A stretch of DNA of 38,786 bases, taken from IMG/VR virus record IMGVR_UViG_3300045988_157946; one strand, given 5' to 3'. The notes under the pieces were generated by a model. The model was not told where the DNA came from. It searched no databases and was given only the letters and a program-made list of their open reading frames with translations. This DNA comes from a virus. Of this stretch, positions 1,644-25,767 are shown one piece after another (the stretch's first letter is position 1; each line of letters opens with the position of its first letter). The translations under genes were made by a program, and so were the position numbers.

Positions 1644-2507
1644 TTATTTCAAATACGTTTTTGCAACATAATATGTAGCGCTGCCGTATTTGACTTTAGA
1701 CATTGTATATTTCTTGCCTTTGATTTTTTTAGTGCCGGCTGAAGCTCTTACAAGTTCAACCTTTGTATTGTTAGGAATAAGCGTGTGAGCTTCTTTGTCG
1801 CCGAGTGCCTTATAAGCATTCAAGCCGCCGTTTGCCTTGACCGTCTTGTAAACCTTAGCTTCTTTAAGATTTTTTTGATTTTTCGGTCGAAGAATACCGT
1901 TTACTGTTGATGAATTATAAGTTTTCTCTCTGAGTGTCATTTTATCGCCGTTCCCGGTTGCATTTTGGTCGTAATACTTAACCTTGCCGTTCTTAGTAGG
2001 CTCGGCAATAACAAAAATATGGCCGTATGTACCTGATGTTCTGATTCCGATATCACCCTTTTTGAGTTCGCCGTTTTTGTATGTAGGTGTAATAAAAACA
2101 AAATTCTTTTTGAGCCACGCAGATGATTTACGATTAGTCCACCAATATTTTGCATTGCCCCAAAAGCCTTTATCAAGTCCAAGGCATTCGTGGATATAGC
2201 AGTCAATTAAATCCACGCACTGCACACCGTAAACACCGTCATAGTTTGTTTTCTTGCCGAGGAATTTTTTAACCCAAGCAGAAAACTTCATACCGTTTGA
2301 GCCGCCTTTCTGCTCAATGTTCATAACAGCGGACAAGCCTGCTGCTACCGCCGAGGCAAGAACACCGAGAAGTGCCGCCTTAAGTGCGGACTTATCCTGT
2401 GTAAAATCAACCGTCGGCAAAGCGACTACAAGAAAAGCAATAAGTGCCTGAATGAATGTTTTTGCAACTCTGATGAGTGCTTCTTTGGTTAATGTGTAAT
2501 TTTTCAT
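1644..2507 (-). CDS. Endolysin with an N-terminal two-TM holin-like domain, a CHAP domain and a C-terminal SH3b-like wall-binding domain
   Basis: Two hydrophobic helices (FIQALIAFLVVALP and ALLGVLASAVAAGLSAV). CHAP Cys in GVQCVDLI and His in GHIFVIAE. The C-terminus KVYKTVKANGGLNAYK..KKYTMSKVKYG..YYVAKTYL is SH3-like. Confidence 0.8.
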   Translation of the reverse strand: MKNYTLTKEALIRVAKTFIQALIAFLVVALPTVDFTQDKSALKAALLGVLASAVAAGLSAVMNIEQKGGSNGMKFSAWVKKFLGKKTNYDGVYGVQCVDLIDCYIHECLGLDKGFWGNAKYWWTNRKSSAWLKKNFVFITPTYKNGELKKGDIGIRTSGTYGHIFVIAEPTKNGKVKYYDQNATGNGDKMTLREKTYNSSTVNGILRPKNQKNLKEAKVYKTVKANGGLNAYKALGDKEAHTLIPNNTKVELVRASAGTKKIKGKKYTMSKVKYGSATYYVAKTYLK

Positions 2508-2523
2508 AATTTTTTACTCCTTT

Positions 2524-2778
2524 TTATTTTAATCTATCTTCAAGGTCCTTAATTCTATGGTCGGCAACGCTAACCTTATTTTCAAGCACAGGCACACGCT
2601 GTGCAAAGTTATTATGTTGTCGAACTTCTCTTGTAAGTTCCTCGATTTTGGTATCTGTAACTGCTTGATTTTTTTCAAGCTCTTTTTGCATTTTTCGGCT
2701 GTTACCGATATTTGTAACGATAACTCCGAGAAAAGTTAAGCCGCCTGTTATTAATGCGACTAATACTTCATCTGTCAT
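2524..2778 (-). CDS. Putative holin or lysis-associated membrane protein (N-terminal TM plus coiled coil)
   Basis: 84 aa with a TM helix (VLVALITGGLTFLGVIVT) followed by a charged coiled coil. It lies immediately upstream of the lysin and overlaps the preceding gene by ATGA. Confidence 0.5.
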   Translation of the reverse strand: MTDEVLVALITGGLTFLGVIVTNIGNSRKMQKELEKNQAVTDTKIEELTREVRQHNNFAQRVPVLENKVSVADHRIKDLEDRLK

Positions 2779-3086: not shown

Positions 3087-4116
3087 TTGCTGCCACTCTC
3101 CTTTTCGCCCATATGCGTATTCTCGTTCCGGGATTAAATACCGAAGTGTCAACATCAAAATAAATCCCAATTGTATCATCAACCGCTTGAAAAGCCTGCA
3201 TCGCTCCGTATCTAATTGCTTTTTGGCTGCTCTTTACTCCCACATAACTGTAGTTCACAATTACATCTTCGTTCATTTTCTGTGCGTGAATAACAGCAAG
3301 AACGTGTGATGACAATTTATCAACATATATGTTATGTGCGCCCCAAAGTATTGAGCGTAGAAAACCACTTGTAGAATGGTTTATCTGTATAAAATCATCG
3401 TTGGTAATTTCTATATGCACTTCAACTGCGTTTTTTATTTCATATTCGATTTTATTTACTTCCTCTTGCACCGTAGTATCTACTGCCAACTCCCACTTTT
3501 CGGATGAGCCTTGCGGTCCTTGTATTCCTGTGTCACCCTTTGGTCCTTGTTCGCCCTGCGGTCCTGTGTCACCTTTTGGTCCTTGTTCACCCTGCGGTCC
3601 TGTGTCACCTTTTTCGCCTTTAAGTTCGCCGTTCGCAAGCTTTGTTTCAAGCATTTCGGATATATCATTAGCTCGCTTAGTAGCCTCTTGTGATTTAACC
3701 GTTTCACTCGCAAGCGCCGAATAATCAGACATTGAGGTTATCCTATTTTCGTCGGTGAGCACGTCATACACCTCTATATTAAATCTCGGTGTAGTTAAAA
3801 GCTGAGCGCCTGCTGCATTTGAATCGTATATCCTCAATTCACACTCAACAGTACCTGCTGCCGTAATAAGCTGCTTTTCGACGTCAACAATAGCCATTCC
3901 GTTTTCAATAGCGCAATCCTTATATATCACATTACCGTCAGTCTTTTTGCCATATATTGTAGCAATCATATCACCGCCAAGTATAAAGGCTTTTCCGCCG
4001 TCGGTAAGGGATATAACTATCCTTCTTGAATTAACATCATTTAGCTTAACGTCTATGCTCCATTGTGCACCGCTTTTTTGCAAATCAAGAGATTTTCGAT
4101 AAACTTGTTTTTCCAT
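3079..4116 (-). CDS. Tail fibre / receptor-binding protein: BppU-N-like domain, collagen-like Gly-X-Y stalk and C-terminal head domain
   Basis: The N-terminal pattern [41 protein letters not shown] matches my recollection of the BppU N-terminal domain. The stalk is [37 protein letters not shown]. Confidence 0.75.
3527..3613. repeat. 36-bp tandem repeat (about 2.4 copies) encoding collagen-like [12 protein letters not shown] units
   Basis: Units at 3527..3562 and 3563..3598 differ at about 2 positions. A partial third unit follows. Confidence 0.85.
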
Positions 4117-4135: not shown

Positions 4136-4170
4136 ATTATACAAAAAGAACGAGGGTGTTTGTCACACCC
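4136..4170 (-). promoter_or_regulatory. Late-promoter candidate 3 (upstream of the tail fibre gene): GGGTGTGACA-N19-TATAAT
   Basis: On the - strand GGGTGTGACA is the reverse complement of 4161..4170 and TATAAT is the reverse complement of 4136..4141, exactly 19 nt apart. The same architecture occurs at 23343..23377 and 27683..27717. Confidence 0.55.
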
Positions 4171-4173
4171 TCG
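4141..4173 (-). terminator. Rho-independent terminator after the giant ORF, overlapping the late-promoter motif
   Basis: CGAGGGTGT-GACAA-ACACCCTCG forms a 9-bp stem and is followed by TTCTTTTTGT on the - strand. Confidence 0.65.
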
Positions 4174-4180
4174 CCGTTAA

Positions 4181-7100
4181 TTATTTGAGCCAATATTTAT
4201 TTATATAATTAATAACATCCGTTCTATTACCATACAATCCTGTTTTCGTCATTATAGTAATTATCTTAGCTTTTTCATCAGCATTACCGTTAATGAATTT
4301 CGCTTTATATTGATTGGCAATAGAAGTTCTGATACCAAAAACGGCATTATCCTGCGTCATACCGTTAGCAACTTTAGCCTTAATTCTGTTATCAACATAA
4401 TTACGAATGTTCTTGGTATCGTTTGACTTAAACGCTTCAACCATTGCCTCGGTATTATAAGACGACGCTTCCCAATTTGTAAAATCCTCATCATCAAAAT
4501 AGCCTGTTGATTCAAGTTTAGTTTTAATTTGACTGCGTTTTGAATTATCCGCAGCTAAATATTCTTCCTTAAAAGCACTCTTTAATGATGATTTTATGCT
4601 TCTTTCGGCCTCTGTCTTTGTCTTGCCGTTGCTTATATCGGTTGCAATATTGCCGTCAATAACAGTTTTCAAAACCGATTTATCACCGCTGTTTAAAGCG
4701 TTTATCAAGTCAGTTTTGTTATAAAGCTTACTGTCTTTGCTATCCTGTTCCTCGTCAATCTCGACCATATCAATTGCTTTTTTGACAGTTTCCTTATCCG
4801 TTCCGCTTGATATAAGCGTTTCAAGCGATTGCTTATATTTTTTGTCGTCGCTGTCCGCCTTATATCCTGCTGCCTTTTGAATTTCGGAAGAATAGGCTTT
4901 AATTGCTTTATAGGCAATCTCGTAGTCAAAGCCGTCGCTTTCAAGCTCTTTAGCGGTATTAATTGCCGTGCCAATATCTCCGTCAAGATATGCAAGGCCT
5001 GCTGTAGCAACTCGCTCGTCATTTTCTATCAATCCCTTCTTGATATAATTATCGGGATTAGAAACATTATCGGCAATGCGCTTATACATGTCCTTGTTGC
5101 CGTCCTTAATTGCCTCATATATCATTTGTTGCTTGTCTTTTTCAGGAAATAGGTCAAGGCCAAATACAGCAAGCACATCATCAGTAAGTAAAGCCTCTTT
5201 AATTTCCGATTGTGTAGCTTCTTTTGCCATTGAAGGATTGAAACTGTTTCCATTCTTTGCACCTTTGATAACATTTTCCACGCTGTTAATATCACGAATT
5301 ACGTTTTTTATCGGCAAGCCGAAAAATGCGCCAATCGAGCCGGCAAGACTTTCAATTTTTTGTGTATAGGTAAGATTGTCACTATTCAGATTGTGAATTG
5401 AATTATACAAATCACTAAACACCGACATATCTGCCCTTGTCACATCATAGCCTTGGAATACAGATATAGCGTCTTTAAGAAAGGCTATTTGATTAACAGG
5501 GTTAGCATTGTCAATAAAATTAGGAATAAGCTCAGCAATATATTTTTCAGCATACGTTTTATCGTCATCATCATTACGTGCGGCGGTTACAATTGATTGA
5601 AGAAGAGCGTTTATAACACTTGCAATAACAAGTGAAGCAACAATTCTCGTGGCCTTTTTCTTGCTAAACTTTCCACGTTTTGCCTGAACGGTTGCATTGA
5701 AAAGCATATTAAGTGAAGTAGTCGGCTCTGCCATAAATGCAGTTGCCATTTTAACGGCGCCGTTTTTACTCCTCATTAAAGCCGAACGTGAAAATACCGA
5801 ATCATATACCTGTGTTTTTGTTATAACCTCAGTAAATCGTTCGCCGGCCTTTTGCAAACTTTCCTCTGTTGATAAATCAGGATATTTATCCTTGGTTTCC
5901 GCCTTGCAGGCATTCCAAATGTGAGACCAGGTTATTTCGTCAGCCTTTGAAGCCACATATCCAAATACCTCATCACGAAACGCTCCGTCCTTAAAAAATG
6001 CCGCAATCTTTTCCTTACCCTTATAATCAATATTATTAAGATAATCAATCGTACTTTGCGCCATGTTAGTATCAAAATATCCCATTTCCTTAATAATAGC
6101 AACAGGAGCATATTTCTTTATTTCCTCATAACTGCGCTTCGTAAATGTAGTTTTTGCGAAATATTTGGTATCAATGATTGATAACGCTCTGCCTATTGCC
6201 GACGGCTGCTGAATTGCAACGGAAGCGGAAGCAAAAACAGCATTTTTCTTGAACATACTTGTAAGTTTATCAACAATATCCGAGCCTGCTTCATGCACGA
6301 CACCGCCGTTAAGGTCCTCAAGCAAATCGCTTATATATCCTGTTGCCTTCTTACCGTATGCATTTTCCACTAAAGTTCTGATAGAACTAAACTCGTCGCC
6401 GTTGCTCGAATGATAATTATAAACCCGGTCGAAATTTTCAAGCGGTAAAGCAAAGGCATTATAGCTTGCCATTTCATCAACGTGGCTCGCCCATACGTTG
6501 TCAAATTCTTCAAGTAAAAGCGGATTTTTTGCTTTTTCAACAATCGCATTAGTAAAGCCTGAATTAATGATTTTTTTAGCGCCAATAGTTTCCATACTGC
6601 TTCTGTGCATGTAGTTTTTAGCGGTACGTGCAGGATAATAATTTTCTTCCTTAAAAAGTTCAACGTCATATAGCCGTCTTGATATCTCGTTGCCCTTTTC
6701 CGCCATATCGGTTGAAAGATATTTAACCATGTCACGAACATAATTCCTTTGTTCGTCGCTTAGCATTGACCTGATTTTTGATATATCCGAATAACTGAGC
6801 CTGTGAGTTAAACTGTCATTCCACTTTGAGCTTTTATCCTTAAGCGTTTGAATAGCACTTTTAGGCTTATCAGTCACTACAATACCGCCATGGATAATAT
6901 GATTAAGCGTTTGCTTTCGATTGCTCATTGCATATATCGCCATTATCTGTTCAAGGTTTAAATTAAGCTTGTCGCCTAATGAAGTTGTTATATCATAACG
7001 TTTCTTCCTATCCCAGCTTTTCCAATCGTATTTTTCTCTGACATCATCAGCGTAATTTTTGCTGTTGTCTATCGTAACCGCCCATGTGTCCTCACCTTTT

Positions 7101-10100
7101 CTGACATCACGGTAAAGTTTAAGCAACTCATCACTGCCAAGATATTCAAAAAAGTATTCCGGTTTCATAGAGCCGTATTTAATTGAATCAATAATACCCT
7201 TGTCTATCTTATACTTTGCATTTACTTGTTTAAGTTCTTCCTCAACCTTAGAAACACTCTGTTCGATAGTTTTATTTCTTTCGGAATAGAATATCTTATT
7301 AACATTATTGCACACTTGAACAGTTGTGCGCACAAGGTCATCCACCATTTTAAGCTCGTCAAGTGTCAATTGATTAGCATTCCTGTCACCAATCATTGTT
7401 TGCAACTGTTCAATATAGTTTTTGATATATCCGTTATATGCTTCGGTCACCTTTTCGTAATCGTCATTATTATTCAGCGATTTAAAACTGCGGTCGAGTG
7501 CATAAAGCTTTGAATATATTTTATCATCAAGCTTAGTACCAAATGATATAACATTTACTATTCCTTTGACTGCTTCGACAATATTATTAGGAATATGATT
7601 TTTCTTATCCTGCTTTGCAAGCTGTGCAAGTCTAATTGTGCTTTTTTGAAAGCTCTTATAAAGCAGACTGCGCTCACGCTTTTCTTTCTGCTTTTGCCTA
7701 TATTCAGCCTTATACTCAACTGTATCTCTATATAAGTTCGACCTATAATCTTGATTTTTCTTTATCTGCTCTTTGCGAAATTCAGAAAATTCCTTTTTAT
7801 GCTTTGCTTTTTCGTCAGCAAGCAGCTTTTGATAGTTGCTTATTTGCTGAGCATATTTCGACCTTGCTTTTAAAAAGCGCTTTTCGTTTTTATCCGCCTT
7901 GGTCTCATAAAGATTAGTCTTGAAATAATAAGAAAGAATATCATTAGCAAGGCTTTCGAGATATTCTTCCTTGCTGTAGCCGTAATCGTTTTCAATAATC
8001 TTATTTTTATAAGTATTAACCATATCAAGAAGCGCAATCGGCATATCCTGCGAATTGTCACTTGGCATTAATCCGCCAAATAATTCTTCCATTTCATTAG
8101 CCAAATCGTCAAGCGGTATACCATTTTCGGTAATGTTAATCTTTCCTCTTGCCGCATTCTTATACTTGCCGTAAGAGCCGAAATAATACGAAACCTCTTC
8201 CTTTTGCTTATCGGATAGCTTAATTTCTGTGTTCTTCAAATAATCAAGCATTTCCTGTTCTTCCTGCGTAGGCTGATACTTAATCTGCTTTTCGTTTTCA
8301 ACAAGCTTTTGTGCAAGGTCGTATGCAGCGTTAAAGAATTGCTGAGAAGTGTCGAGCGTGTGCCAGCTTTTCATTTCCTTAGCCACGTCAACGCCTGTCA
8401 TACGTGTAGGTGTAAGCTTAATGATTTTTCTTGCCGCAATTAATAACGAGTTCGTACTTACTTCCCTGCCGTTAGTAAGCTCAAATTGGTGCTTTAAGAC
8501 CTCATTGATTTCCTTAAGGTGCTTGTTTTCACGCTTAAGCTCTGCATACTCGGAATAGTCTACGTCTCGGGAGTATCTTTTTTTGCTTGTGTTATCATTA
8601 TCAGCATTTTTCCGATATCCGAATCCGTCACTTTGCCTTTCTGCTTGAAGCGTTTTTCTATTGAATGAATCAATATTTCCTGTTGTTCTTCCGTTTCTAT
8701 TGCTGCTAAGGCTTCTGCTATTGTATCTTTCGGAAGTTTCAAGTAATCCAGATAGTCTATTATCGTTTTTTGCTTTTCCGTGAACTCCATAATCATCCAA
8801 TCCCTTCAAATAATCTTCAATATTATATCTGCTGTAATATGTAATACCATTTTCATTGTATACAAAACGATATTTATAATCACCATAATTTATACTTCTT
8901 AACTCGTTAGAATATTTGTTTGCATATCTTGTTGTAATTGCACTTGATACAACAGCATATTCTTTTTTTCCAAGTCTGATTTCATTATAATCCGTATCAT
9001 CAAACTCGTCAATATTAACATCACGAGAAAATCTAACATCTTCAATTGAATTAACAACATCAAGTCGGCTCTGCTCGTTATTTGCTTTATATTCTGCATA
9101 CGAAACGCCTGCATTTTTTAATGCATTTTTCAACTTTTGACTTGCATTGTCAGGAATAACAGCAGTATATACTTCGTTAAAATAAACGGCTCTTTGCGGT
9201 TTTGCTTCAAAATAACTCGTTGGCAATGCACGAATATCATTAACGAGGGTCCAAATATCATCAACCGCCATATCACTGTAATTAGCCCAGCCTTTAAGCT
9301 CGGTTTTCAAATAATTTGCAAGCCCTGATTTTGTTTCTGTTTTTGCAACGCCGTCAACGATAATATCAGCCACAGCAAATGGGTTATCGTTTTTTGTCAT
9401 ACTTTGGGCAATTTCTTGAAATCTTTTATAAAGATTATTACGTATTTGATTGTATTCTTCATCATTAACATTTTGAAGTCGTGATTTATCATTTCTCACT
9501 TCATCAAGATTGTTATATTTCTTCGCTGAGCCACCGATTATATTGCTGACGAGAAAATTGCCACCCTGAGCATTTTGATTATTCATTGCCTTAACGATAT
9601 TTTCAAGGTTATAATCCCAATACAGACTTTCCCAATTCTTTCGATTACCGGATTCGGTAAAAGGGTCATTGCCTTTCCAAATACCCTTTTTCTCTACAAC
9701 GCCGTCAAATAAATCATTAAGCCAGCTTTCATATTCCTTTTGATTAATTTTATTATCAATAAGATTATGTGTTGCCTCATCATCTGAAACGAGTTCAACT
9801 TTTTCAGCTCCGTTTTTCAAATAATCGATAGCCTTTTTCACAAAAGCTTTTCTTTGAAACGCCGTCTTAATTTCATCCGAATTGTTGAAAATGTTATCTA
9901 TGTTCTCATCACTTATACCGGGAATTAAGGATTTATAGTAATCGGCGATTGATTGTTTTATCTTGCTATCGTATCTTTCAACCCATAATTTGCTCGGAAG
10001 CAACGGTTTGTTCTCAATTTCCTGAAGCGTATCTTTTATATTATCATTAAGAAAATCGAAAACGTCAGTATCTTCGCTTGTAAGAGTTGTTTTCTTTTCT

Positions 10101-13100
10101 CTTTGAACAATATCTCTAACCGGCTCAGACTTGTCTGCCAAATATAGCTCCTTTAAAGCATAATCATTTTTATACTTATTAACTAATTCGGCAATACTTC
10201 CTGCGCTGTCAACTTGGTCTTTGAAATTATCAGGCTGAAATAATGAAGCATTAGGCTTATATGCAAGTTTTTGCTTTACAAGATTGTTTATTTTGCTATA
10301 TAAATCCCATGCTTTCTTTTCATTAAGTTTGTGTTCGGCTTTAACTGATATCGGAGTATAAGCGTCAGAAGAATAAACCTTATTTGCATTACTTTCTTGT
10401 GGGTCAATAGTCTTTTTATCAAAAACAAGTGATATATCACCAAACTCATTATTTGCGCTGATATTTTGTGCTTTCATTATTGCTATCGACGGACTTGGTA
10501 AACCACCGAGTTCTAATGCACTGAGCAGTTTACTTTCGGTAGTATTATGAATTGCAACAAGTTCCTTTGCTTCCTCAATAGGTATATCAAGTGAAAATTT
10601 TGTTTCATTATTATTGACATTTGAAGAATTATTTGCTATATTATCTATGCGAGACAAGTCGTAACTATTATAACCTCTGGATTCTTTATCCTTTGCGTTC
10701 AGTGAGACTGTCTCGTTTTTATTTTGCAAATTCATATTATGAATATAAAACTTATTTTCAACAGGCGTTTTCTTTATTTTTATTTCAACATTATAATTTT
10801 CGCCGTCAACTATAGCAGGATGATTAAGTACCAAAAACGAACTACCCTCTTTTGAGTGGTAGTTTTTTTCATTTTCATTAACCACCTCTGCATATCTAAT
10901 CATATCTGGTAAGCTGTCAATAACAGCTATTTTTGCAGTTTTTATTTTACGTGGCAATGAAAAATATCGCTTTTCTGTAGATAATGTTTCTCTGATCCCG
11001 TTTTTAGTTATTGAAACAACAATATCCGTATCTGCATTTACAACAATATTTTTATTGTTTTGATTGAAAAAGTTATCGTTATCAAGAGTTGATATAACTC
11101 TTTTTTGAATATACACAAAATCATTAAGCGCATTTGCTGTATTTGATATGCCGAACTTTTCTAATTTCTCGTTAGAATTAATATCAACATCAGCAAATTT
11201 ACCTAGTGTCACGGAATTTTTAGTGTTTTCCTCAACCTCGGTACCGTTATAAAGATTATTGCTTGCATTATCGAGCATATCGAGAAACTGCTTGCGAATA
11301 TGGTCGGCTCTCTTTTGCTCCATTTCCATAGCGTTCCTTGCAGCCGTCTGCAAATTAGAAGTAGCAATCACACTTTTAATTTTTTCAATAACAGACTTAA
11401 GGAAATCTGCGATTGTTTCAATAATGCTTTTCTTTTCAGCTTCGGTTTTGTTGTCACTAAGCCACTTTGCAAACTGCTCAACGCCCTCATCCGTAGAAAA
11501 GAGACCCGATACAGCGTCGTTGGTAAGCTCGTCTATTGCCTCTGCTCTTGTTTTTGACCCCTCAGCCTTAGTATATGTATCGATATAAGCGTCAACAAGA
11601 GAGTTAAAATTATCTGCGCCCTTGTAGCTGACATACCAATCACGAATAGCGGCCTGCACGTTTTTGTATTCCTGCTCATTATAAGCAAGCCCAAACTCGC
11701 CAAGTTCGTGAATAAGTGCATTATACTCACCGCTACCGTCTGCATTAATGATAATTTTAGCAAGCGACGGAATAAACTGACCGTTTCCGCCCTGTCTGCC
11801 GTCGGAGTGTCTTTCAATATCCACTCTTGTTTTCCTTGCAACCTCGGTAAAGACATCATCAATCGTACTGTCACTGTCAGAAATATTCTTGTATTCACCT
11901 TCAATATGCCTTGTGGCTTTTGTAGGTGATTTTTTATTTTTTCTCTGCTCCTCAATATAAGCGTCATAGCTTTTAGCGTCTGTTTGTCCCGAACGGTAAA
12001 TATTAATCGCTTTGTCGCCGAGGAATTTAACGGCAGGATAAAAAGCCGGGTTTCTCATAACGAATTCATTAAACGGCACATCAGGCTTTGCAACGCCCAA
12101 ATCATAAAGCATTTTTGCCTGAGATACATACGTACTTACACTTGCGCCCTTTAAATTATTCGGGTCAAAATTGACATAAACGGCATTTGCCCCGGAGTTA
12201 CCGAAGTTTTTATTTATAATTTCATTTGTCAGGACCTGCTGCGTTTGATTTTTGAACGAAATATTGTTGTAATCAATGTCGCCGGCTGAGGTTTTAACCT
12301 TGAAATTACTGCGGTCGGCGCTGACCTCAAATGGGTGCTTGCCATAGATTTTTACCGCCGCTTGATTTCCGTCTGCCGTAATAGCAACAGCATTAACATT
12401 ATATTTAAGGTCGTTGCTCTGTTGTTCTGCTGTGAACGTTTCTGCAGGCTTTTGCGTATATTCCGATACGTTTGTTGTGTTTTCCTCTAAAGCGGCATTT
12501 TGAGCATTTTCTGCCCTGGGCTGATACTTGCTGTAGCCGCCATAAGTAAAGCTATAATCTGTATAGCCGTTCTTAAGCTTAGCCGACAATGCTTCAAGCG
12601 AATCGTTGCTGATATCTTTTTCAGTAAAGTCTGAGCCGAACTGTTCATTTATGGCATTAATAGCTTTTTCACTATCCTTAATCACCTTGACATCATATCG
12701 GCTCAATTCAAAGCCATTAACCATTTTGCTTATGGCCTTATTTATTCTGTCCTCGTTTTTTTCGCCCTCAATTGCCGTGGCAATGTTTTCCTTGAAGCCC
12801 TCTTTCACTATCTCTGTTTGAAGCTGTCCGAGCCTTTTTTCATTAATCTTACTGTAATCAGCTTCATCATAAATAGAAGCGCCGGCAAGTACATCACCGT
12901 TTGCTTGACTTGTCTTAACCTTTGCCTGCAATTCCTCGGCATACTTATATGCCTTACTGTTTTTATTCTTTGAAAGCCCCTCGTCTATAATCGCCTGAAT
13001 ATCGCTGTTGCTTTGTGCTTTTGCTTCTGCGCCGAGCTTTTTATTATCGATATTATTTTGTGTGCTTTCAATAATCTTGTTCGGTGCAATTTCGCTACCT

Positions 13101-14812
13101 GACATAACAGCGCCGGCAAAGCCTGCCTGCAAGGCGGCGAAGATATCCTCGGCAAGCATAGACTTAACAACCTCTTTGTCTGCCTCTTGTTCACTCAAAC
13201 CTTGTTCAAGATAGCTTCTTTTAAGCTGCGAAAGCTCGCTTAATTGTCCCTGTGTAATTTGGTCGTACGTTCTGTCAACAACATTACCGATAATTTCCTC
13301 TGTGCCCTCATTAAGTCCACTCACAAGAATTTTACCGAATGTGCTGTTTCCCTTGACGTCCGCCCATTCAAGCGGAGCGCCAACCATTTCCGTAAGGAAG
13401 TTAATTAATGCGCTTTTCACGCTGCTTTTAATCGTTTCACCCGAAGAACTTCCGCTTGCAAGCTGTGAAGACATATCATCGCCCATAGCCGCCGTACTGA
13501 ATACGCCGTTAATAAGTGCTTGTTTTGCCTTTTCTGCCTTACCCGAAGCGGTAATACCGCCTGTTATTCCGCCGCCAAAAAGTAATGAATTGTAAACATT
13601 CTCTGCCATTTGGTCTATGTTATCATATAGCGCCGCATTAACATTACCCATATTGTTGCCGAGAATTTCAATTTCGTTATTCTTATTGACGCTTATAGGG
13701 CCTATTTTTTTGCCGGCAAGATTGATAAGTCCGTCATTTGCTGCCTTATCTTCAAGTCCTTTTCGTGTGCCGTACGCTGCATTCGTAATAAAGTCCGCCG
13801 TGCCGTTAATACTGCTTTTACCGTTCACCGCCATATCAATGGTATTTGCTATATTCGCCTGCGCTCTTAAAGGGGAAGTAAGCGTTCTTGCTGCCTGCAT
13901 TATAACCGGGTGCTCCTGTGCCGCTTTTTCAGCGCCTTTTATAACCTTTGCCTGCTGCTCATTGTTTTTATTAGCAACATAATAATCAATCAAGTCCTCT
14001 GCCTTGATATCCTTATATCCTTTCTTGTTAATAAGGCTTTGAAGTTCTTTGAGTGAATCATTATATTTTTTGCTATAGTCAACGTCATTTTGACCCTTTG
14101 AGCCTACACCCATAGCATTAAGCATAGCACTGCTCATATCATCAGCGCCCGAAGCCTTGCTTTTCTCGGCAATTGCATTTCTATATCTGTATGCCTGCTC
14201 TGCTTTTTTTGATATTTCATTATCTTTGCTTAAAGCGTTCTTGTTTTTAGCTGCCGTTTCTTCTCTTGCTTTTTGCTTAATGTCAGCGTCGTATGCCTGT
14301 TGCTCATAAGCCTCTTGCTTAGATTTATTATAAATCTGCTTGACTTCATTTTTCCGCTCAGCGTCATACGGATTTCCGTACAAAGTCTCGCCGACTTTGC
14401 CTATTTCACTCATAAGTAAATTTTTCTTTTGCTTACTGCCGTTTAATGTCTCATACTCCTCCTTAAGCTTATCGTATGCACTCTGCTTTTTCTCTTTTTC
14501 CTTTTGAGCAGATTTATAGTTTTTCTTTGCCTCGGAAGCGGAAATACCGTCGGCAGGATTAATTATATTTAATATAGCCTTAAGCTGGCTTTTCCTCTCG
14601 TCATTAATTCCTTTCTTTTGCTCGTTTTTATAGGCCTTAGTGTTTTTAATATAATCATCATAATAAAGCTTATACGTATTTGCAGATACATTGCTGCGGT
14701 TATTCTTTGCGCCCTCATACATAGAACGAGAGTATTCGTATGCGTCCTTTTTCTGCTTTTCTTCATCACGCTTTTTAGCTTTTTTTCTTAATGTATCAAA
14801 ATCAATTGCCAT
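4181..14812 (-). CDS. Giant (3,543 aa) modular virion-associated protein; candidate internal/ejection 'polyvalent' protein
   Basis: The ORF is uninterrupted. The likely start is the ATG at 14812, with a GAGG core 5 nt upstream (the track begins 2 codons earlier at a GTG). It sits between internal-protein-like genes and the tail fibre. It has Gly-rich hydrophobic segments, an LIHELGEF segment (11693..11710) and multiple distinct sequence modules. Confidence 0.7.
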   Translation of the reverse strand: MAIDFDTLRKKAKKRDEEKQKKDAYEYSRSMYEGAKNNRSNVSANTYKLYYDDYIKNTKAYKNEQKKGINDERKSQLKAILNIINPADGISASEAKKNYKSAQKEKEKKQSAYDKLKEEYETLNGSKQKKNLLMSEIGKVGETLYGNPYDAERKNEVKQIYNKSKQEAYEQQAYDADIKQKAREETAAKNKNALSKDNEISKKAEQAYRYRNAIAEKSKASGADDMSSAMLNAMGVGSKGQNDVDYSKKYNDSLKELQSLINKKGYKDIKAEDLIDYYVANKNNEQQAKVIKGAEKAAQEHPVIMQAARTLTSPLRAQANIANTIDMAVNGKSSINGTADFITNAAYGTRKGLEDKAANDGLINLAGKKIGPISVNKNNEIEILGNNMGNVNAALYDNIDQMAENVYNSLLFGGGITGGITASGKAEKAKQALINGVFSTAAMGDDMSSQLASGSSSGETIKSSVKSALINFLTEMVGAPLEWADVKGNSTFGKILVSGLNEGTEEIIGNVVDRTYDQITQGQLSELSQLKRSYLEQGLSEQEADKEVVKSMLAEDIFAALQAGFAGAVMSGSEIAPNKIIESTQNNIDNKKLGAEAKAQSNSDIQAIIDEGLSKNKNSKAYKYAEELQAKVKTSQANGDVLAGASIYDEADYSKINEKRLGQLQTEIVKEGFKENIATAIEGEKNEDRINKAISKMVNGFELSRYDVKVIKDSEKAINAINEQFGSDFTEKDISNDSLEALSAKLKNGYTDYSFTYGGYSKYQPRAENAQNAALEENTTNVSEYTQKPAETFTAEQQSNDLKYNVNAVAITADGNQAAVKIYGKHPFEVSADRSNFKVKTSAGDIDYNNISFKNQTQQVLTNEIINKNFGNSGANAVYVNFDPNNLKGASVSTYVSQAKMLYDLGVAKPDVPFNEFVMRNPAFYPAVKFLGDKAINIYRSGQTDAKSYDAYIEEQRKNKKSPTKATRHIEGEYKNISDSDSTIDDVFTEVARKTRVDIERHSDGRQGGNGQFIPSLAKIIINADGSGEYNALIHELGEFGLAYNEQEYKNVQAAIRDWYVSYKGADNFNSLVDAYIDTYTKAEGSKTRAEAIDELTNDAVSGLFSTDEGVEQFAKWLSDNKTEAEKKSIIETIADFLKSVIEKIKSVIATSNLQTAARNAMEMEQKRADHIRKQFLDMLDNASNNLYNGTEVEENTKNSVTLGKFADVDINSNEKLEKFGISNTANALNDFVYIQKRVISTLDNDNFFNQNNKNIVVNADTDIVVSITKNGIRETLSTEKRYFSLPRKIKTAKIAVIDSLPDMIRYAEVVNENEKNYHSKEGSSFLVLNHPAIVDGENYNVEIKIKKTPVENKFYIHNMNLQNKNETVSLNAKDKESRGYNSYDLSRIDNIANNSSNVNNNETKFSLDIPIEEAKELVAIHNTTESKLLSALELGGLPSPSIAIMKAQNISANNEFGDISLVFDKKTIDPQESNANKVYSSDAYTPISVKAEHKLNEKKAWDLYSKINNLVKQKLAYKPNASLFQPDNFKDQVDSAGSIAELVNKYKNDYALKELYLADKSEPVRDIVQREKKTTLTSEDTDVFDFLNDNIKDTLQEIENKPLLPSKLWVERYDSKIKQSIADYYKSLIPGISDENIDNIFNNSDEIKTAFQRKAFVKKAIDYLKNGAEKVELVSDDEATHNLIDNKINQKEYESWLNDLFDGVVEKKGIWKGNDPFTESGNRKNWESLYWDYNLENIVKAMNNQNAQGGNFLVSNIIGGSAKKYNNLDEVRNDKSRLQNVNDEEYNQIRNNLYKRFQEIAQSMTKNDNPFAVADIIVDGVAKTETKSGLANYLKTELKGWANYSDMAVDDIWTLVNDIRALPTSYFEAKPQRAVYFNEVYTAVIPDNASQKLKNALKNAGVSYAEYKANNEQSRLDVVNSIEDVRFSRDVNIDEFDDTDYNEIRLGKKEYAVVSSAITTRYANKYSNELRSINYGDYKYRFVYNENGITYYSRYNIEDYLKGLDDYGVHGKAKNDNRLSGLLETSERYNSRSLSSNRNGRTTGNIDSFNRKTLQAERQSDGFGYRKNADNDNTSKKRYSRDVDYSEYAELKRENKHLKEINEVLKHQFELTNGREVSTNSLLIAARKIIKLTPTRMTGVDVAKEMKSWHTLDTSQQFFNAAYDLAQKLVENEKQIKYQPTQEEQEMLDYLKNTEIKLSDKQKEEVSYYFGSYGKYKNAARGKINITENGIPLDDLANEMEELFGGLMPSDNSQDMPIALLDMVNTYKNKIIENDYGYSKEEYLESLANDILSYYFKTNLYETKADKNEKRFLKARSKYAQQISNYQKLLADEKAKHKKEFSEFRKEQIKKNQDYRSNLYRDTVEYKAEYRQKQKEKRERSLLYKSFQKSTIRLAQLAKQDKKNHIPNNIVEAVKGIVNVISFGTKLDDKIYSKLYALDRSFKSLNNNDDYEKVTEAYNGYIKNYIEQLQTMIGDRNANQLTLDELKMVDDLVRTTVQVCNNVNKIFYSERNKTIEQSVSKVEEELKQVNAKYKIDKGIIDSIKYGSMKPEYFFEYLGSDELLKLYRDVRKGEDTWAVTIDNSKNYADDVREKYDWKSWDRKKRYDITTSLGDKLNLNLEQIMAIYAMSNRKQTLNHIIHGGIVVTDKPKSAIQTLKDKSSKWNDSLTHRLSYSDISKIRSMLSDEQRNYVRDMVKYLSTDMAEKGNEISRRLYDVELFKEENYYPARTAKNYMHRSSMETIGAKKIINSGFTNAIVEKAKNPLLLEEFDNVWASHVDEMASYNAFALPLENFDRVYNYHSSNGDEFSSIRTLVENAYGKKATGYISDLLEDLNGGVVHEAGSDIVDKLTSMFKKNAVFASASVAIQQPSAIGRALSIIDTKYFAKTTFTKRSYEEIKKYAPVAIIKEMGYFDTNMAQSTIDYLNNIDYKGKEKIAAFFKDGAFRDEVFGYVASKADEITWSHIWNACKAETKDKYPDLSTEESLQKAGERFTEVITKTQVYDSVFSRSALMRSKNGAVKMATAFMAEPTTSLNMLFNATVQAKRGKFSKKKATRIVASLVIASVINALLQSIVTAARNDDDDKTYAEKYIAELIPNFIDNANPVNQIAFLKDAISVFQGYDVTRADMSVFSDLYNSIHNLNSDNLTYTQKIESLAGSIGAFFGLPIKNVIRDINSVENVIKGAKNGNSFNPSMAKEATQSEIKEALLTDDVLAVFGLDLFPEKDKQQMIYEAIKDGNKDMYKRIADNVSNPDNYIKKGLIENDERVATAGLAYLDGDIGTAINTAKELESDGFDYEIAYKAIKAYSSEIQKAAGYKADSDDKKYKQSLETLISSGTDKETVKKAIDMVEIDEEQDSKDSKLYNKTDLINALNSGDKSVLKTVIDGNIATDISNGKTKTEAERSIKSSLKSAFKEEYLAADNSKRSQIKTKLESTGYFDDEDFTNWEASSYNTEAMVEAFKSNDTKNIRNYVDNRIKAKVANGMTQDNAVFGIRTSIANQYKAKFINGNADEKAKIITIMTKTGLYGNRTDVINYINKYWLK
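8560..8796 (-). CDS. Possible nested 78-codon ORF in the +1 frame of the giant gene
   Basis: It reads as a balanced helical protein (EFTEKQKTIIDYLDYLKLPKDTIAEALAAIETEEQQEILIHSIEKRF..). AAGGGA lies 4-5 nt upstream of its ATG. The host frame here is an S/R/N-rich low-complexity linker. Confidence 0.3.
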   Translation of the reverse strand: MIMEFTEKQKTIIDYLDYLKLPKDTIAEALAAIETEEQQEILIHSIEKRFKQKGKVTDSDIGKMLIMITQAKKDTPET

Positions 14813-14823
14813 AATCACACCTC

Positions 14824-16020
14824 TTATGCCAAGTCAAAATGATTAAGTAACCACTTTGCCTGTTCTTCATTAATAGTCTTTTTCTTAAGTAACCTTTCAA
14901 TTGCGTTTGTTCTGCCCTCATTGGTCCTGTTCATTCCGATATCTTGTAGCATACCGTTTGAAATACCTATATCGTCCTGTGTTTTTTCTTTATTACCGGA
15001 ATCATTTGACGAATTACTATTTCCTTTAGCAGTATAAGAATAGCCCGATTTGCCACTTGAACTTCCGCTTGACCGCCTGCCGCCTGAGCCACCGCTGCTC
15101 TTAGGTGGAGTATATTTGTATTGCTTATAAATAGCGTCTGCCTGATACTGAGTAATGTTACCTTTCTTAACCTGGGCTTTAAGATATGCTTTCATTCCTT
15201 TATTATCCTTTTTGTCCCGGTAGCTGTCCGCTTTGTCGGCAGCGATAGAAACATTAACCTCGTTCATAGACCAATATTCATCTCGCTTATTTTGTTTTGT
15301 ATCTTCCTTAAGCTGAGCCTTAAATTGTCTGCTGTTTTCTTTAAGGCTGTTATCGTTCCAATAGCGCTCACTGTTTGTTTCTGTGGCTTCATTTGCTGCG
15401 TTTTGCTCTTTCCAATATTGGTCAAGCCAAAAGTCTCTGTTATCCGTATATTGATTAATGGCATTAGCGTTCTCCTGATTCGACCTGCCTGCTGCAGCAC
15501 CGGCGATATCAGCCCAGGCATTGTTGCGGTTTACATTGCTGTTCTCAATATTTTTGAATCCCTCAATAGCTGCCTGATATGCTGCCAAATCGTTTTGTTT
15601 TTGTGCGTACCATTCTTCCTGGGATTGCTGATAAAACGCAGGCAAAGCAACGTCAACATTTGCCTGATACGCATTATCCGTTTGAGCGGCAACCTGCGGT
15701 GCGTATGTTGAGCCATATCCTGCCGTTAAATTCTCCGCCGCTTGCTGTGTCGCCGCCGTGGATAAACCGCCAAGCTGCCGATATAGCTCCGCCCACTGCT
15801 GATACGCTTTGTCATTTGCTTTGTCGTATGAGAAAGCACCTTTGTTTGCAACTCTGTTATACATTTCTTGCATTTGCTGCGCGTAATTATTAGGTGCATT
15901 ATTCGGCTGAGAATACGCCAACTGTTGAGCAGCCTCTCTCTGTCGCTTTTGCTCCTCTGTTTCGGCATAAGGAGTATTATATTGCTCGTATTTGCTTCTT
16001 GTGTTGTTTGATATAGCCAT
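14824..16020 (-). CDS. Q/N/A/Y-rich virion internal protein candidate (paralog of 16029..16886) with a Gly/Ser-rich tract
   Basis: AGGTG RBS. It shares the motif GxFSYD..D..Q....Y...G......AA..T.GY..(S/T)YA.Q.A with the upstream gene. It also contains an SSGGSGGRRSSGSSSGKSG tract. Confidence 0.6.
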   Translation of the reverse strand: MAISNNTRSKYEQYNTPYAETEEQKRQREAAQQLAYSQPNNAPNNYAQQMQEMYNRVANKGAFSYDKANDKAYQQWAELYRQLGGLSTAATQQAAENLTAGYGSTYAPQVAAQTDNAYQANVDVALPAFYQQSQEEWYAQKQNDLAAYQAAIEGFKNIENSNVNRNNAWADIAGAAAGRSNQENANAINQYTDNRDFWLDQYWKEQNAANEATETNSERYWNDNSLKENSRQFKAQLKEDTKQNKRDEYWSMNEVNVSIAADKADSYRDKKDNKGMKAYLKAQVKKGNITQYQADAIYKQYKYTPPKSSGGSGGRRSSGSSSGKSGYSYTAKGNSNSSNDSGNKEKTQDDIGISNGMLQDIGMNRTNEGRTNAIERLLKKKTINEEQAKWLLNHFDLA

Positions 16021-16028
16021 AATTACAC

Positions 16029-16886
16029 CTACTTTCCTCTTGATTTTTTCTTAGCAATTGTTTCCATTTTATTATTATGACGTCTTGTTTCGGAAAGCTG
16101 TTGGTCTGCCTGGGTTGCTTGCTGATTAAGCGTATTTGTTTTATTAATTTCATTAGCATTGTAATCATTAGCCCAATTAACCTGGCTCTGTGCGTTATTA
16201 ACTCTTGTCTGCGCTGCATTCCTGTTATCGCTCCACAAGCCGTATTGATTGTTGTAATCATCTTTATATGCGGTATTAAATACGTTATATGCATTATTTG
16301 CCGCATTAAGTTTGTTATAATAACTGCTTTCTTCTGCCGCCTTTTGGTTGTTTACAAGATTATATCTGTCTTGTATTTGGTTGTATTCGTTTTGCCAATT
16401 AGTAAGAGCATTTGCTCTAAGTTCAATTGCCTTATCGCTCAGTCCACTCATTGTATTGTTGTATGCCTGCTGCGCTGATTGCTGAGCATAACTGTTGTTA
16501 TATCCGCCTGTATTTGCAGAAGCTGCTGCAAGCTGATTTTTCATTGCGCCGGCACCTGCAGCTAAATACTGTTGCTTATATATTTGGAAAAGTTGGTCTT
16601 TTTCCTGGTCGTAACTAAAATCGCCGTAATTCATTATTTGGTCGAACAAATCATCAACCGTGGTTTGAAGCTTTTGCTGTGAAGCGTCAAAGTTTGCTTT
16701 TCCCTGTCCGCTGTAAAGGTCATTCCAATCATTAAAAGCGTTTTCGGACCTTTCTTTATATCCAGCGGCGTCGTTATAATTAAAATCGCCTATCGCCGTA
16801 AGCGCATTTTGTGCCGCAGTCAGCTCGTTGTTATATCCTGACGTATCAATCGTTTTAGCCTTATATTTTGGTGTTTTCTTTGACAT
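16029..16886 (-). CDS. Q/N/A/Y-rich virion internal protein candidate (paralog of 14824..16020)
   Basis: GGTGAGGA RBS. Motif GDFSYDQEKDQLFQIYKQQYLAAGAGAMKNQLAAASANTGGYNNSYAQQSAQQAY. Confidence 0.6.
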   Translation of the reverse strand: MSKKTPKYKAKTIDTSGYNNELTAAQNALTAIGDFNYNDAAGYKERSENAFNDWNDLYSGQGKANFDASQQKLQTTVDDLFDQIMNYGDFSYDQEKDQLFQIYKQQYLAAGAGAMKNQLAAASANTGGYNNSYAQQSAQQAYNNTMSGLSDKAIELRANALTNWQNEYNQIQDRYNLVNNQKAAEESSYYNKLNAANNAYNVFNTAYKDDYNNQYGLWSDNRNAAQTRVNNAQSQVNWANDYNANEINKTNTLNQQATQADQQLSETRRHNNKMETIAKKKSRGK

Positions 16887-16900
16887 ATATCCTCACCGTC

Positions 16901-17113
16901 CTATATTTCATATTCCTTTGTCGTTTGGTCGCTGTATTTAACTGTAATTAAATGCGTTGTTGCAACTATATCAACTACATATTTTGCCTCGTTTGCATTA
17001 CCTCTGTTGCTGTCTATATACCTCTGCAGTTTATTAACAAGCTGCTCAATATAATTCACAACGTATGGCAAATTGCCTGTTGCGCTCATTTTACTTATAA
17101 TCGGTAATTTCAT
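16901..17113 (-). CDS. Small structural-module protein (start re-assigned to Met9, ATGA overlap with the upstream stop)
   Basis: The ATG at 17113..17111 overlaps the TGA at 17112..17110 of the 1104-aa gene, which is typical of translational coupling. Confidence 0.55.
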   Translation of the reverse strand: MKLPIISKMSATGNLPYVVNYIEQLVNKLQRYIDSNRGNANEAKYVVDIVATTHLITVKYSDQTTKEYEI

Positions 17114-25755: not shown

Positions 25756-25767
25756 TTTGTCTGCTCC

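Follow-up and report, generated by a model that had tools for sequence, protein, structure and literature searches.

What kind of protein does a short-tailed phage encode in a single gene that takes up more than a quarter of its genome? The window, i.e. the whole 38,786-nt stretch of DNA that we analysed, carries on its minus strand a single uninterrupted ORF of 10,632 nt (27.4% of the window). A first-pass annotation, made from the letters alone, had singled out this ORF as 3,543 codons long, covering 27% of the genome and encoding a candidate multi-domain 'polyvalent' protein delivered with the phage DNA. The coordinates and size of the ORF are confirmed by our analysis; its product is a protein of 3,543 aa and 399.9 kDa. 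Our best explanation, which we hold to be probable, is that this is a virion-associated polyvalent protein built from two parts, a conserved carrier and, set within it, an effector cassette that can be exchanged. In the carrier, an N-terminal region rich in Lys/Glu and Gly precedes a zincin-like module and an all-helical C block of ~1,000 aa with one hydrophobic helix; the cassette of this phage is made up of LPD3, the endoRNase domain PBECR5 and a 255-aa companion domain.

The gene and its flanking signals are as follows:

4181..14812, minus strand: giant polyvalent-protein gene, 3,543 codons plus stop, matched over nearly its full length by PHROG 22978
14818..14825, minus strand: Shine-Dalgarno sequence AAGAGGTG, 5 nt before the ATG at 14812
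4149..4175, minus strand: terminator-like hairpin with an 11-bp stem and a trailing T-run, in the gap before the tail-fibre gene

The ORF listing runs from a GTG (4181..14818, minus strand, 3,545 aa), and initiation at the ATG at 14812 yields the 3,543-aa product. Since the Shine-Dalgarno sequence AAGAGGTG overlaps the stop codon of the preceding Q/N-rich gene, the arrangement suggests that translation of the giant gene is coupled to that of its upstream neighbour. The gap to the fibre gene is 64 nt long and includes the hairpin. The giant ORF is not an assembly artefact: four further contigs in public JGI/ENA assemblies, the largest 248 kb long, encode an identical 3,543-aa protein, uninterrupted orthologues of 3,485, 3,174 and 2,396 aa occupy the same slot in other genomes, and the split version seen at one related locus, L001, is explained by a one-base deletion in an A6 homopolymer and is not a genuine two-gene form. 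Complete ORFs were found at 88 related loci, with a median length of 3,229 aa. In a second relative, L002, the ORF split falls inside the cassette.

Homology searches of the giant protein were run by segments. PHROG 22978 has no assigned function, neither the giant protein nor its neighbours matched NCBIfam, and PDB sequence and profile searches returned nothing for the giant protein or the C block. Near-identical DNA was not found in cultured phages, no cultured phage in INPHARED carries the C block at the BLAST level, and tblastn with the giant protein retrieved only short uncultured contigs and PBECR-type matches.

The phage itself is temperate and podovirus-like, with a gut Eubacterium/Clostridia host. 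Its genome encodes an integrase, and TerS, TerL, a P22-like portal, scaffold, major capsid protein (MCP) and fibre surround the giant gene on the same strand; the capsid protein is closest to those of Page-type podoviruses. Two Q/N-rich proteins and a tail fibre had been named as the flanks of the ORF, which is indeed the case: the gene downstream encodes a tail fibre with BppU_N and collagen domains, and the two genes upstream are:

14824..16020, minus strand: Q/N-rich protein of 398 aa (20.9% Q+N), the upstream partner
16029..16886, minus strand: second Q/N-rich protein of 285 aa (25.6% Q+N), in conserved synteny

The 398-aa protein has no family match, and its homologues precede the giant gene in most distant loci. 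In distant Clostridia prophages, at more than 20 loci, the virion module contains the giant gene with the Q/N-rich partner ahead of it. Two slots are used: in the first, as in this phage, the gene comes after the tail gene and is followed by the fibre; in the second, seen in six relatives, it lies between portal/Prp and scaffold/MCP. The latter slot is where MuF-type head proteins sit. An upstream protein of 1,104 aa is labelled 'internal virion protein' by PHROG 511; comparisons with the Page tail protein and with PDB entries revealed no similarity, which leaves it a candidate tail component at most.

This gene neighbourhood bears on the reading of the giant as a tape-measure, tail-length or other external tail protein of a long-tailed phage whose remaining tail genes had been missed. 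Great length and a largely helical make-up would fit such a protein, as would weak Phage_HK97_TLTM matches in fragments of some relatives (E 0.004-0.007, below the cutoff). We nevertheless consider this very unlikely, given that searches of the phage genome turned up neither a tail-tube, sheath or tape-measure gene nor one for a chaperone, Dit or Tal, that the portal and capsid proteins are of podoviral type, that the gene of six relatives sits between portal and scaffold, and that the protein carries toxin domains that act in the cytoplasm. The first-pass annotation, which had seen no tail tube, chaperone, Dit or Tal gene beside the ORF and had argued against a conventional tape measure, was right on both counts.

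The central part of the protein contains the domains that mark it as polyvalent:

10745..11068 (aa 1249-1356), minus strand: LPD3 (Pfam PF18798, E 1.5e-15, 57.8 bits against a cutoff of 27)
9791..10606 (aa 1403-1674), minus strand: PBECR5, predicted to be a BECR-fold endoRNase that needs no metal (Pfam PF18814, E 1e-89)
9026..9790 (aa 1675-1929), minus strand: companion domain of ~255 aa, which follows PBECR5 in 12 distant giants
8624..11242, minus strand: low-GC stretch (30-35% GC) that contains the exchangeable cassette

LPD3 accounts for the compact module remarked on earlier at about 10800..11100, and the module beginning 'LVAIHNTT...' at about 10480..10570 is the start of PBECR5. Both are Pfam families defined from polyvalent proteins in the work that described them (PMC5512222), which bears out the multi-domain polyvalent assignment. 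The PBECR5 match reaches 301 bits against a cutoff of 25 and spans model positions 1-238 of 239; 13 divergent PBECR5 copies all share H1422, N1423, D1483 and T1486, and S1442 is almost invariant among them. PBECR5 is the predicted effector of the cassette, an RNase by family; it is not a recognised anti-restriction domain, and a role in countering host defence is one that we infer. The companion domain has no Pfam match and contains an invariant FEAKPxR motif at aa 1868-1874. The low-GC stretch is flanked by DNA of 41-44% GC upstream and 37-38% downstream. Pfam searches detected no peptidoglycan hydrolase domain in the giant protein and no Phage_Mu_F match at E<=1.

Comparison with related prophages had been proposed as a way of detecting module swapping, and it reveals exchange of the cassette between conserved N and C blocks. 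In syntenic orthologues ART-PolyVal, PBECR3, MuF_C, LPD23, RadC or an SNF2/methylase pair replace LPD3/PBECR5, and in close relatives the swaps lie between flanks that are 80-97% identical and replace the segment from about aa 1410 to 1924-2079. A census of the central region in 47 syntenic giants yielded ART-PolyVal (17), LPD3 (13), PBECR5 (9), MuF_C (7), PBECR3 (3) and ADPrib_exo_Tox (2), together with LPD23, RadC and a SNF2/ResIII/Eco57I-methylase set; the same domain repertoire is given for polyvalent proteins in PMC5512222. The carrier, comprising the N block, the zincin-like module and the C block, is far better conserved than the cassette.

A conserved carrier combined with variable ART and PBECR modules is also how polymorphic toxins, a concept described in PMC5576092, are built, and MuF_C domains occur in relatives. 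The giant could accordingly be a late-expressed polymorphic toxin that acts against competing bacteria without injection by the particle, being either freed at lysis or borne on particles, as has been discussed for MuF toxins of temperate phages. This we judge improbable: neither a signal peptide nor any other secretion domain is present, no immunity gene lies beside the gene, it is not evident how 400 kDa of free protein would get into a Gram-positive competitor, and the conserved place of the gene is within head or tail modules.

The carrier begins with the following regions:

13823..14812 (aa 1-330), minus strand: Lys/Glu-rich N-terminal region (23-33% K+E per 100 aa)
13013..13822 (aa 331-600), minus strand: Gly-rich, moderately hydrophobic segments (LLFGGGITGGITASG, AGFAGAVMSG)
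11243..11872 (aa 981-1190), minus strand: zincin-like module

The first of these, read as coiled coil in the first-pass annotation, is conserved in close relatives only, and conservation of aa 331-600 is weak in distant giants. The segment LIHELGEF, noted earlier as zincin-like and incomplete, is an HExxE variant within a zincin-like module that is conserved across the family. The motif of the window protein is HELGE (aa 1035-1039, window 11696-11710), whereas about 100 of the 150 best family representatives have HExxH at this position; the HExGE variant is kept within a clade whose members are otherwise only 26-28% identical in the N block. E1095, downstream of the motif, is invariant across a 21-row alignment. 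The AF2 model of this part (pLDDT about 69-94) has a helix and three strands followed by the motif helix, a topology like that of zincins. Pfam DUF6782 metallopeptidase matches one relative (E 5e-9), while MPTase-PolyVal does not match the window protein and was hit by one relative only (E 0.033). Foldseek of the zincin/LPD3 model against the PDB gave nothing significant (best E 0.37, Mycobacterium tuberculosis PrpR), and a PDB search with the zincin profile gave motif-level matches only, e.g. CapP (E 0.39). Because the zincin of this clade lacks the second His, self-processing by the module may not occur. Processing by the phage's own Prp protease was also considered and rejected: QLFA|D sites are present in the scaffold and MCP, and none comparable is found in the giant.

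The remainder of the carrier is the C-terminal part of the protein:

4184..8623 (aa 2064-3543), minus strand: conserved C block, defined by alignment; all-helical, unnamed and family-defining
5588..5644 (aa 3057-3075), minus strand: hydrophobic helix, conserved family-wide
4232..4723 (aa 3364-3527), minus strand: tandem duplication of a ~76-aa helical unit (E 4e-12)

The long region around YYPARTAKNYM, noted before without an assignment, belongs to the core of the C block (aa 2401-3240, window 5093-7612). The block matches 6,927 clusters at E<=1e-3 and 4,628 at E<=1e-30, is usually terminal in proteins of 2,200-4,600 aa from ~38-45-kb podovirus-like Clostridia phages, and every IMG/VR contig that carries it is 45.5 kb or shorter. 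Its AF2 model is all helical (pLDDT 62.7) and gives 59 BFVD structure matches, to C-terminal parts of giant phage proteins. The C block has no match in Pfam, NCBIfam or the PDB; Foldseek of the model against the PDB returned nothing at E<=1e-3, only generic helical-repeat noise, and hhalign against the C-terminus of Bcep22 gp75 found nothing. Bacillus phage Page gp20, which has a similar position, was rejected as evidence, as hhalign produced no more than a faint QQPxSxxRA-like alignment with E 0.055 and a probability of about 1%. The C-terminal helical repeats that had been seen by eye proved to be a tandem duplication, aa 3364-3439 against 3452-3527, with an AF2 pLDDT of about 61-85. The hydrophobic helix (aa 3057-3075), also seen at first reading, is the sole strong TM-like segment in the giant protein; it is preceded by basic residues and followed by an RxDDDD acidic cluster, both conserved, and is a candidate membrane-inserting segment.

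The strength of carrier conservation raises the question of which part of the protein matters most. The giant may chiefly be an essential structural ejection or conduit protein that spans the Gram-positive envelope, a one-protein analogue of T7 gp14-16 or P22 gp7/16/20 with a dispensable toxin cassette. A carrier that is far more conserved than the cassette and present in about 6,900 clusters, a helix conserved together with its charged flanks, and a T7-like gene position after the tail gene and before the fibre all speak for this reading. So do two precedents from other phages: gp25 of PTXU04, a putative polyvalent protein, is needed for infection (PMC11879866), and a conduit role has been suggested for phi24B gp47 by its authors (bioRxiv 10.64898/2026.04.10.717836). 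However, comparisons by sequence, Foldseek and hhalign linked the carrier to no known ejection protein, and it resembles none of the solved ejectosome proteins in sequence or structure; furthermore, every family member examined contains at least one effector-type domain. We therefore regard it as a serious but rather doubtful alternative, and one that overlaps with the carrier-and-cassette explanation without excluding it.

Size and context are likewise compatible with an N4-like or crAss-like virion RNA polymerase, since about 3,500 aa, a podovirus context and a likely location in the virion all recall N4 gp50. This is the least likely of the readings considered here, less so even than a tape measure: Pfam, NCBIfam and PDB sequence searches detected no polymerase family in the giant protein, the C block has no fold match, and a temperate phage with an integrase can use the host RNA polymerase. 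In good agreement, the first reading had seen neither a polymerase nor a peptidoglycan hydrolase motif, and domain searches found none.

Returning to the polyvalent protein with an exchangeable cassette, we consider that it is most likely packed in the particle and injected with the DNA, because its position in the virion module is conserved and because there are published precedents. It would be synthesised late from the structural operon, with translation coupled to that of the Q/N-rich partner, and one or a few copies would be packed per capsid. That a capsid sized for about 39 kb could hold 400 kDa of protein cargo is made plausible solely by what is known of the T7 core and the N4 virion RNA polymerase. 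The protein would leave through the portal and tail, before or together with the DNA, whereupon the hydrophobic helix and the Gly-rich segments would contact the membrane as an ejectosome or conduit. The RNase cassette would then enter the cytoplasm, possibly after proteolytic release, and within minutes of the start of infection cleave RNA of the host or of a competitor. A bolder version, which we put forward tentatively and think somewhat unlikely, holds that the N block, zincin-like module and ~1,000-aa C block form a self-contained and so far undefined 'carrier-translocon'. While anchored to the capsid, it would provide the ejection conduit by placing its conserved hydrophobic helix in the membrane of the Gram-positive host, and would deliver interchangeable RNases, ADP-ribosyltransferases and a methylase-helicase. 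If so, few families of effectors injected by phages of gut Clostridia would be larger (about 6,900 clusters), and structurally similar C-terminal domains in environmental phages would widen it further.

That this lineage devotes about 20-30% of its ~40-kb genome to a single gene implies strong selection. Temperate phages that infect gut Clostridia are abundant, yet they have scarcely been studied. In the family, nature supplies a collection of effectors, RNases and ADP-ribosyltransferases among them, that are probably injected at the onset of infection, and as such it bears on host takeover, inter-phage competition and lysogen ecology in the gut. The C block, unnamed and with no solved relative, could reveal how short-tailed phages cross the Gram-positive envelope, and the conserved flanks on either side of the swappable cassette suggest a chassis for protein delivery into Clostridia.

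How does the giant compare with known systems? Its gene order is similar to that of T7, in which capsid, tail genes, internal proteins (gp14-gp16) and fibre follow one another. N4 gp50, a virion RNA polymerase of ~3,500 aa, is packed in several copies and ejected by a podovirus. Unlike the T7 core and N4 gp50, the giant has no lytic transglycosylase or RNA polymerase, nor was any likeness to them in sequence or fold detected. The MuF polymorphic toxins (Jamet et al. 2017; PMC5576092), which belong to temperate phages mainly of Firmicutes, also join a conserved, head-associated carrier to toxin domains that vary. They differ in that the toxin of the giant is internal and not C-terminal, there is no Phage_Mu_F domain or adjacent immunity gene, and the giant is roughly ten times larger.

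Polyvalent proteins are already known as a kind, while the very large C-block family has not been described previously. Like the polyvalent proteins of Iyer, Burroughs, Anand, de Souza and Aravind (2017; PMC5512222), the giant carries several unrelated conflict domains on one polypeptide, is encoded beside portal-terminase virion genes and shows domain mosaicism among relatives. In contrast to them, about 70% of it, including the C block, matches none of the 131 published domains, and it has no canonical MPTase-PolyVal match and no MuF or portal fusion; a zincin metallopeptidase is frequent, not universal, among polyvalent proteins (PMC5512222). The 'DarB-like' Bcep22 gp75 and JC1 gp69 of Lessievirus podoviruses (PMC9144972) are likewise giant (4,602 aa in Bcep22, 22% of the genome in JC1), lie at the end of the structural module and contain LPD3. 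However, they come from phages of Gram-negative hosts, contain a lytic transglycosylase, methylase, helicase and LPD38, none of which was found in the window protein, and have a C-terminal region without detectable similarity to it. Gp47 of the short-tailed Stx phage phi24B, a 2,811-aa polyvalent protein, was detected in the virion proteome, is missing from the cryo-EM map and was proposed to be a capsid-packed ejection protein (bioRxiv 10.64898/2026.04.10.717836); we liken it by description only, as its domains (LPD5, LPD1, LPD38 and MuF-C) differ from those found here. Finally, prophages phi1 and phi4 of C. clostridioforme LM41, ~41 kb, podovirus-like and from a gut Clostridia host, carry at their 3' end an 8-kb ORF that takes up about 20% of the genome and is LPD3-like (PMC11318856). 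This ORF is noted there in passing, is shorter (about 2,700 versus 3,543 aa) and is likened to ours by description; podovirus-like particles of these prophages are released (PMC11318856).

The 3,543-codon reading frame (window 4181..14812, minus strand), which the first-pass annotation had described as single, uninterrupted and 27% of the genome, is confirmed as such: the minus strand carries one ORF at 4181..14818, and translation from the ATG at 14812 yields 3,543 residues with zero internal stops. The encoded protein (hereafter the giant) has a mass of 399.9 kDa, and its gene takes up 27.4% of the window. Two elements flank the coding sequence:

14818-14825, minus strand: strong Shine-Dalgarno sequence AAGAGGTG of the giant gene, 5 nt ahead of the ATG at 14812
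64-nt gap from the giant stop codon to the fibre gene: hairpin with an 11-bp stem and a T-run

Because of where the Shine-Dalgarno sequence lies and because it shares bases with the TAA of the preceding gene, we read a GTG two codons upstream as part of the ribosome-binding site and not as the start; the same overlap suggests that the giant is translationally coupled to the upstream gene. The ORF is no assembly artefact, as seen from identical copies and intact orthologues. The identical protein is encoded on four contigs (JGI and ENA assemblies, up to 248 kb) in which the element is integrated in a bacterial chromosome, and the same slot elsewhere holds intact orthologues, 3,485 aa long in Eubacterium sp. 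CAG:251 and 3,174 aa and 2,396 aa long in other genomes. The ORF is complete in 88 of 104 related loci; the median length of these ORFs is 3,229 aa, and the longest has 4,307 aa.

Two relatives are annotated with a divided gene. An A6-T-A6 homopolymer lies inside the giant gene at about 11935-11947 (near aa 958-960); L001, a related locus on a 2.17-Mb contig of GCA_027494415.1, lacks a single A there (A5), which shifts the frame so that annotators call two genes. The shorter run may stem from an error in sequencing, from a mutation that inactivates the gene or from a site prone to slippage. In L002, a 98%-related phage, the slot is called at about 10001-10043 as two ORFs overlapping by 43 nt (1,550 aa with PBECR3 and 1,898 aa with ART-PolyVal), the frame changing within the effector cassette; an error or decay may lie behind this, as may a genuine split or frameshift.

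The window is a temperate prophage with an integrase and an ImmA-like protease; it also encodes replication genes and a DNA methyltransferase, after which comes the late operon:

Late operon, head part, minus strand: TerS, TerL, P22-like portal, Prp-like protease, scaffold, capsid protein
Late operon, rest, minus strand: small proteins, 1,104-aa protein, two Q/N-rich proteins, giant, BppU_N + collagen fibre, XhlA-like protein, CHAP endolysin
23378-23698, minus strand: Prp-like cysteine protease (Pfam Peptidase_Prp), between portal and scaffold
22394-23272, minus strand: scaffold, N-terminal MQKYHIQLFA/DG
21311-22354, minus strand: capsid protein, N-terminal ..KKYSAQLFA/DD
17110-20424, minus strand: 1,104-aa protein, apparently beta-rich, conserved across the lineage
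2524-2778, minus strand: XhlA-like 84-aa protein, just upstream of the endolysin
1644-2507, minus strand: endolysin, CHAP domain plus an N-terminal holin-like or membrane segment (aa 7-60, weak PHROG and Pfam holin matches)

No tail tube, sheath, tape measure, Dit or Tal was found among the window genes, in line with the earlier remark that tail tube, Dit and Tal genes do not accompany the giant, and a tape-measure identity was rejected on that absence. The capsid protein is most similar to those of uncultured human-gut phages; its nearest cultured relatives are Bacillus Page-type podoviruses and Streptomyces phages. Close homologues carry the name Eubacterium sp., and farther loci are from Clostridia MAGs (Faecousia, Oscillospiraceae, Lachnospiraceae, Mogibacterium). 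The N-terminal motifs of scaffold and capsid protein resemble the ribosomal L27 Prp cleavage site, suggesting Prp-dependent capsid maturation; the giant carries no such motif. The 1,104-aa protein is matched from end to end by PHROG 511 ('internal virion protein'), its conserved portion is the C-terminal ~320 aa, and no homologue was found in Pfam, PDB or cultured phages; it probably serves as the main protein of the tail or nozzle.

When compared with its homologues, the giant falls into three parts: an N block (aa 1-1410) and a C block (aa 2064-3543), both conserved, with a variable cassette (aa 1410 to ~1924-2079) between them. GC content is 30-35% from LPD3 to aa 2063, 41-44% in the N block just upstream and 37-38% in the C block. 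PHROG 22978, which has no annotated function, aligns to nearly all of the giant, while NCBIfam and PDB sequence searches gave no match. Pfam recognises two segments, the second of which is followed by an unnamed domain:

aa 1249-1356: LPD3, Pfam E 1.5e-15
aa 1403-1674: PBECR5, Pfam E 1e-89, whole model covered
aa 1675-1929 (window 9026-9790, minus strand): companion domain of ~255 aa

Both Pfam families were originally defined from polyvalent proteins (PMC5512222), and they are the two modules that the first-pass annotation had singled out. PBECR5 residues H1422, N1423, D1483 and T1486 are invariant in 13 of 13 divergent copies and S1442 nearly so, a pattern that would be compatible with the arrangement of His plus Ser/Thr known from PBECR domains. 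PBECR5 always has the companion domain after it, and the two travel as a unit among 12 distant giants; the companion has an invariant FEAKPxR motif and is the better conserved of the two (40-49% versus 33-45% identity in the closer ones of these giants). Possible roles for the companion are those of a further catalytic domain, a targeting domain or a built-in inhibitor. Past the left end of the window, the host flank of L003, another related locus, has short stretches (25293-25837) that are 67-80% identical to aa 1342-1418, the end of LPD3 and the start of PBECR5. They adjoin a 131-aa ORF outside the prophage, and may be a solo domain or what is left of a related prophage that once occupied this site.

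The LIHELGEF segment, first described as 'zincin-like but incomplete', is a variant of a zincin-like motif. At aa 1035, HELGEF lines up with (M/I)L(F/Y)TxxHE(L)xH(F/Y)IxxWSP in about 100 of the 150 top-ranking representatives of the family, so that most relatives are of HExxH type and the clade of the window giant, with HE[LI]GE[FY]xxAY[ND], is an HExxE variant. N-block identity within this clade is only 26-28%, and retention of the whole motif despite this argues that the variant is under selection. A Glu ~60 residues past the motif, in EExxAD, is invariant in the aligned members checked. As modelled by AlphaFold2 (block-mean pLDDT about 69-94), the topology is zincin-like: one helix, three strands, the motif helix, then more helices including the Glu. 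Foldseek against PDB returned nothing significant, the top match being the ImmA/IrrE-like domain of M. tuberculosis PrpR (E 0.37), and Pfam gave weak or indirect hits in relatives (DUF6782 metallopeptidase, 5e-9, in one; MPTase-PolyVal, 0.033, in another).

A profile of aa 2400-3543 matched 6,927 clusters (50% identity) at E<=1e-3 and 4,628 at E<=1e-30, the top matches being, with few exceptions, proteins of 2,000-4,650 aa that carry the domain C-terminally. No IMG/VR contig with the C block exceeds 45.5 kb, and many measure 38-45 kb; a fifth to a quarter of the genome of these phages therefore routinely goes to this one gene. The C-block model is all helical (pLDDT 62.7) and found no structural neighbour in PDB. 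The BFVD viral-model library yielded 59 matches at E<=1e-3, some in environmental phages at 11-16% identity; 49 of the best 50 listed are later pieces of very long proteins stored in parts, with automatic names such as Nuclease, PolyVal ADP-ribosyltransferase, MuF C-terminal domain protein and Type I restriction enzyme. The hydrophobic helix and C-terminal repeats noticed at first sight are both real: aa 3057-3075, the only strong hydrophobic segment in the entire giant, is kept in 19 of 19 members checked, with basic residues before and an RxDDDD-type acidic cluster after, and the final 180 residues are a tandem duplication.

Related prophages show the module swapping that the first-pass annotation had proposed looking for, as close relatives carry different cassettes between flanks 80-97% identical. 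In the central regions of 47 giants the Pfam repertoire is the polyvalent one: ART-PolyVal (17), LPD3 (13), PBECR5 (9), MuF_C (7), PBECR3 (3), ADPrib_exo_Tox (2) and, once each, LPD23, RadC, DUF6782 and a SNF2/ResIII/Helicase_C/Eco57I-methylase set. Gene order is kept as well: in most distant loci the giant is preceded by a homologue of the Q/N-rich proteins, and there are two arrangements:

Order 1 (window type): MCP, 125-aa protein, 1,104-aa protein, Q/N-rich partner, giant, fibre
Order 2 (L013, L015, L020, L021, L023, L025; six loci): portal, Prp, Q/N-rich partner, giant, scaffold, MCP, further genes

The two sites in related phages indicate that the pair moves as a unit. Order 2 places the giant in the usual slot of MuF-type head proteins; a MuF identity was rejected for want of a Phage_Mu_F domain.

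Domain content, mosaic exchange and virion-module position are directly supported, and the giant has the testable defining features of a multi-domain polyvalent protein, as first proposed. Also as first noted, it has neither a peptidoglycan hydrolase nor an RNA polymerase motif: a virion RNA polymerase was rejected since no polymerase family matched in Pfam, NCBIfam or PDB, and a gp16/gp75-type protein since the giant has no hydrolase and no similarity to solved ejection proteins. A giant ORF of this kind was mentioned briefly for podovirus-like prophages (~41 kb) of C. clostridioforme (PMC11318856), and automatically named relatives are already in UniProt. The concept will not surprise a specialist; the family is nonetheless large, uncharacterised and experimentally accessible. 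New here are its size, its carrier-plus-cassette architecture and its two conserved gene orders, together with the still unnamed C block and the conserved hydrophobic helix within it, the zincin clade of HExxE type and the companion domain of PBECR5.

In the mechanism that we propose, the giant would be packed inside the capsid and ejected from the particle, its hydrophobic and Gly-rich segments would act at the membrane, and the RNase cassette would reach the cytoplasm with or without proteolytic release. The non-canonical zincin, the lack of a peptidoglycan hydrolase and the absence of similarity to solved ejection proteins weaken this proposal. Nothing specific supports an anti-defence role; the effector of this phage is a predicted RNase. 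We infer packaging and ejection from precedents. N4 packages a 3,500-aa polymerase and T7 about 1.5 MDa of core proteins. The 2,811-aa polyvalent protein gp47 of phi24B is found in virions and is a proposed ejection protein (bioRxiv 10.64898/2026.04.10.717836); PTXU04 gp25 is needed for infection (PMC11879866); and in the Bcep22/JC1 podoviruses the last structural gene encodes a giant DarB-like protein with LPD3 (PMC9144972).
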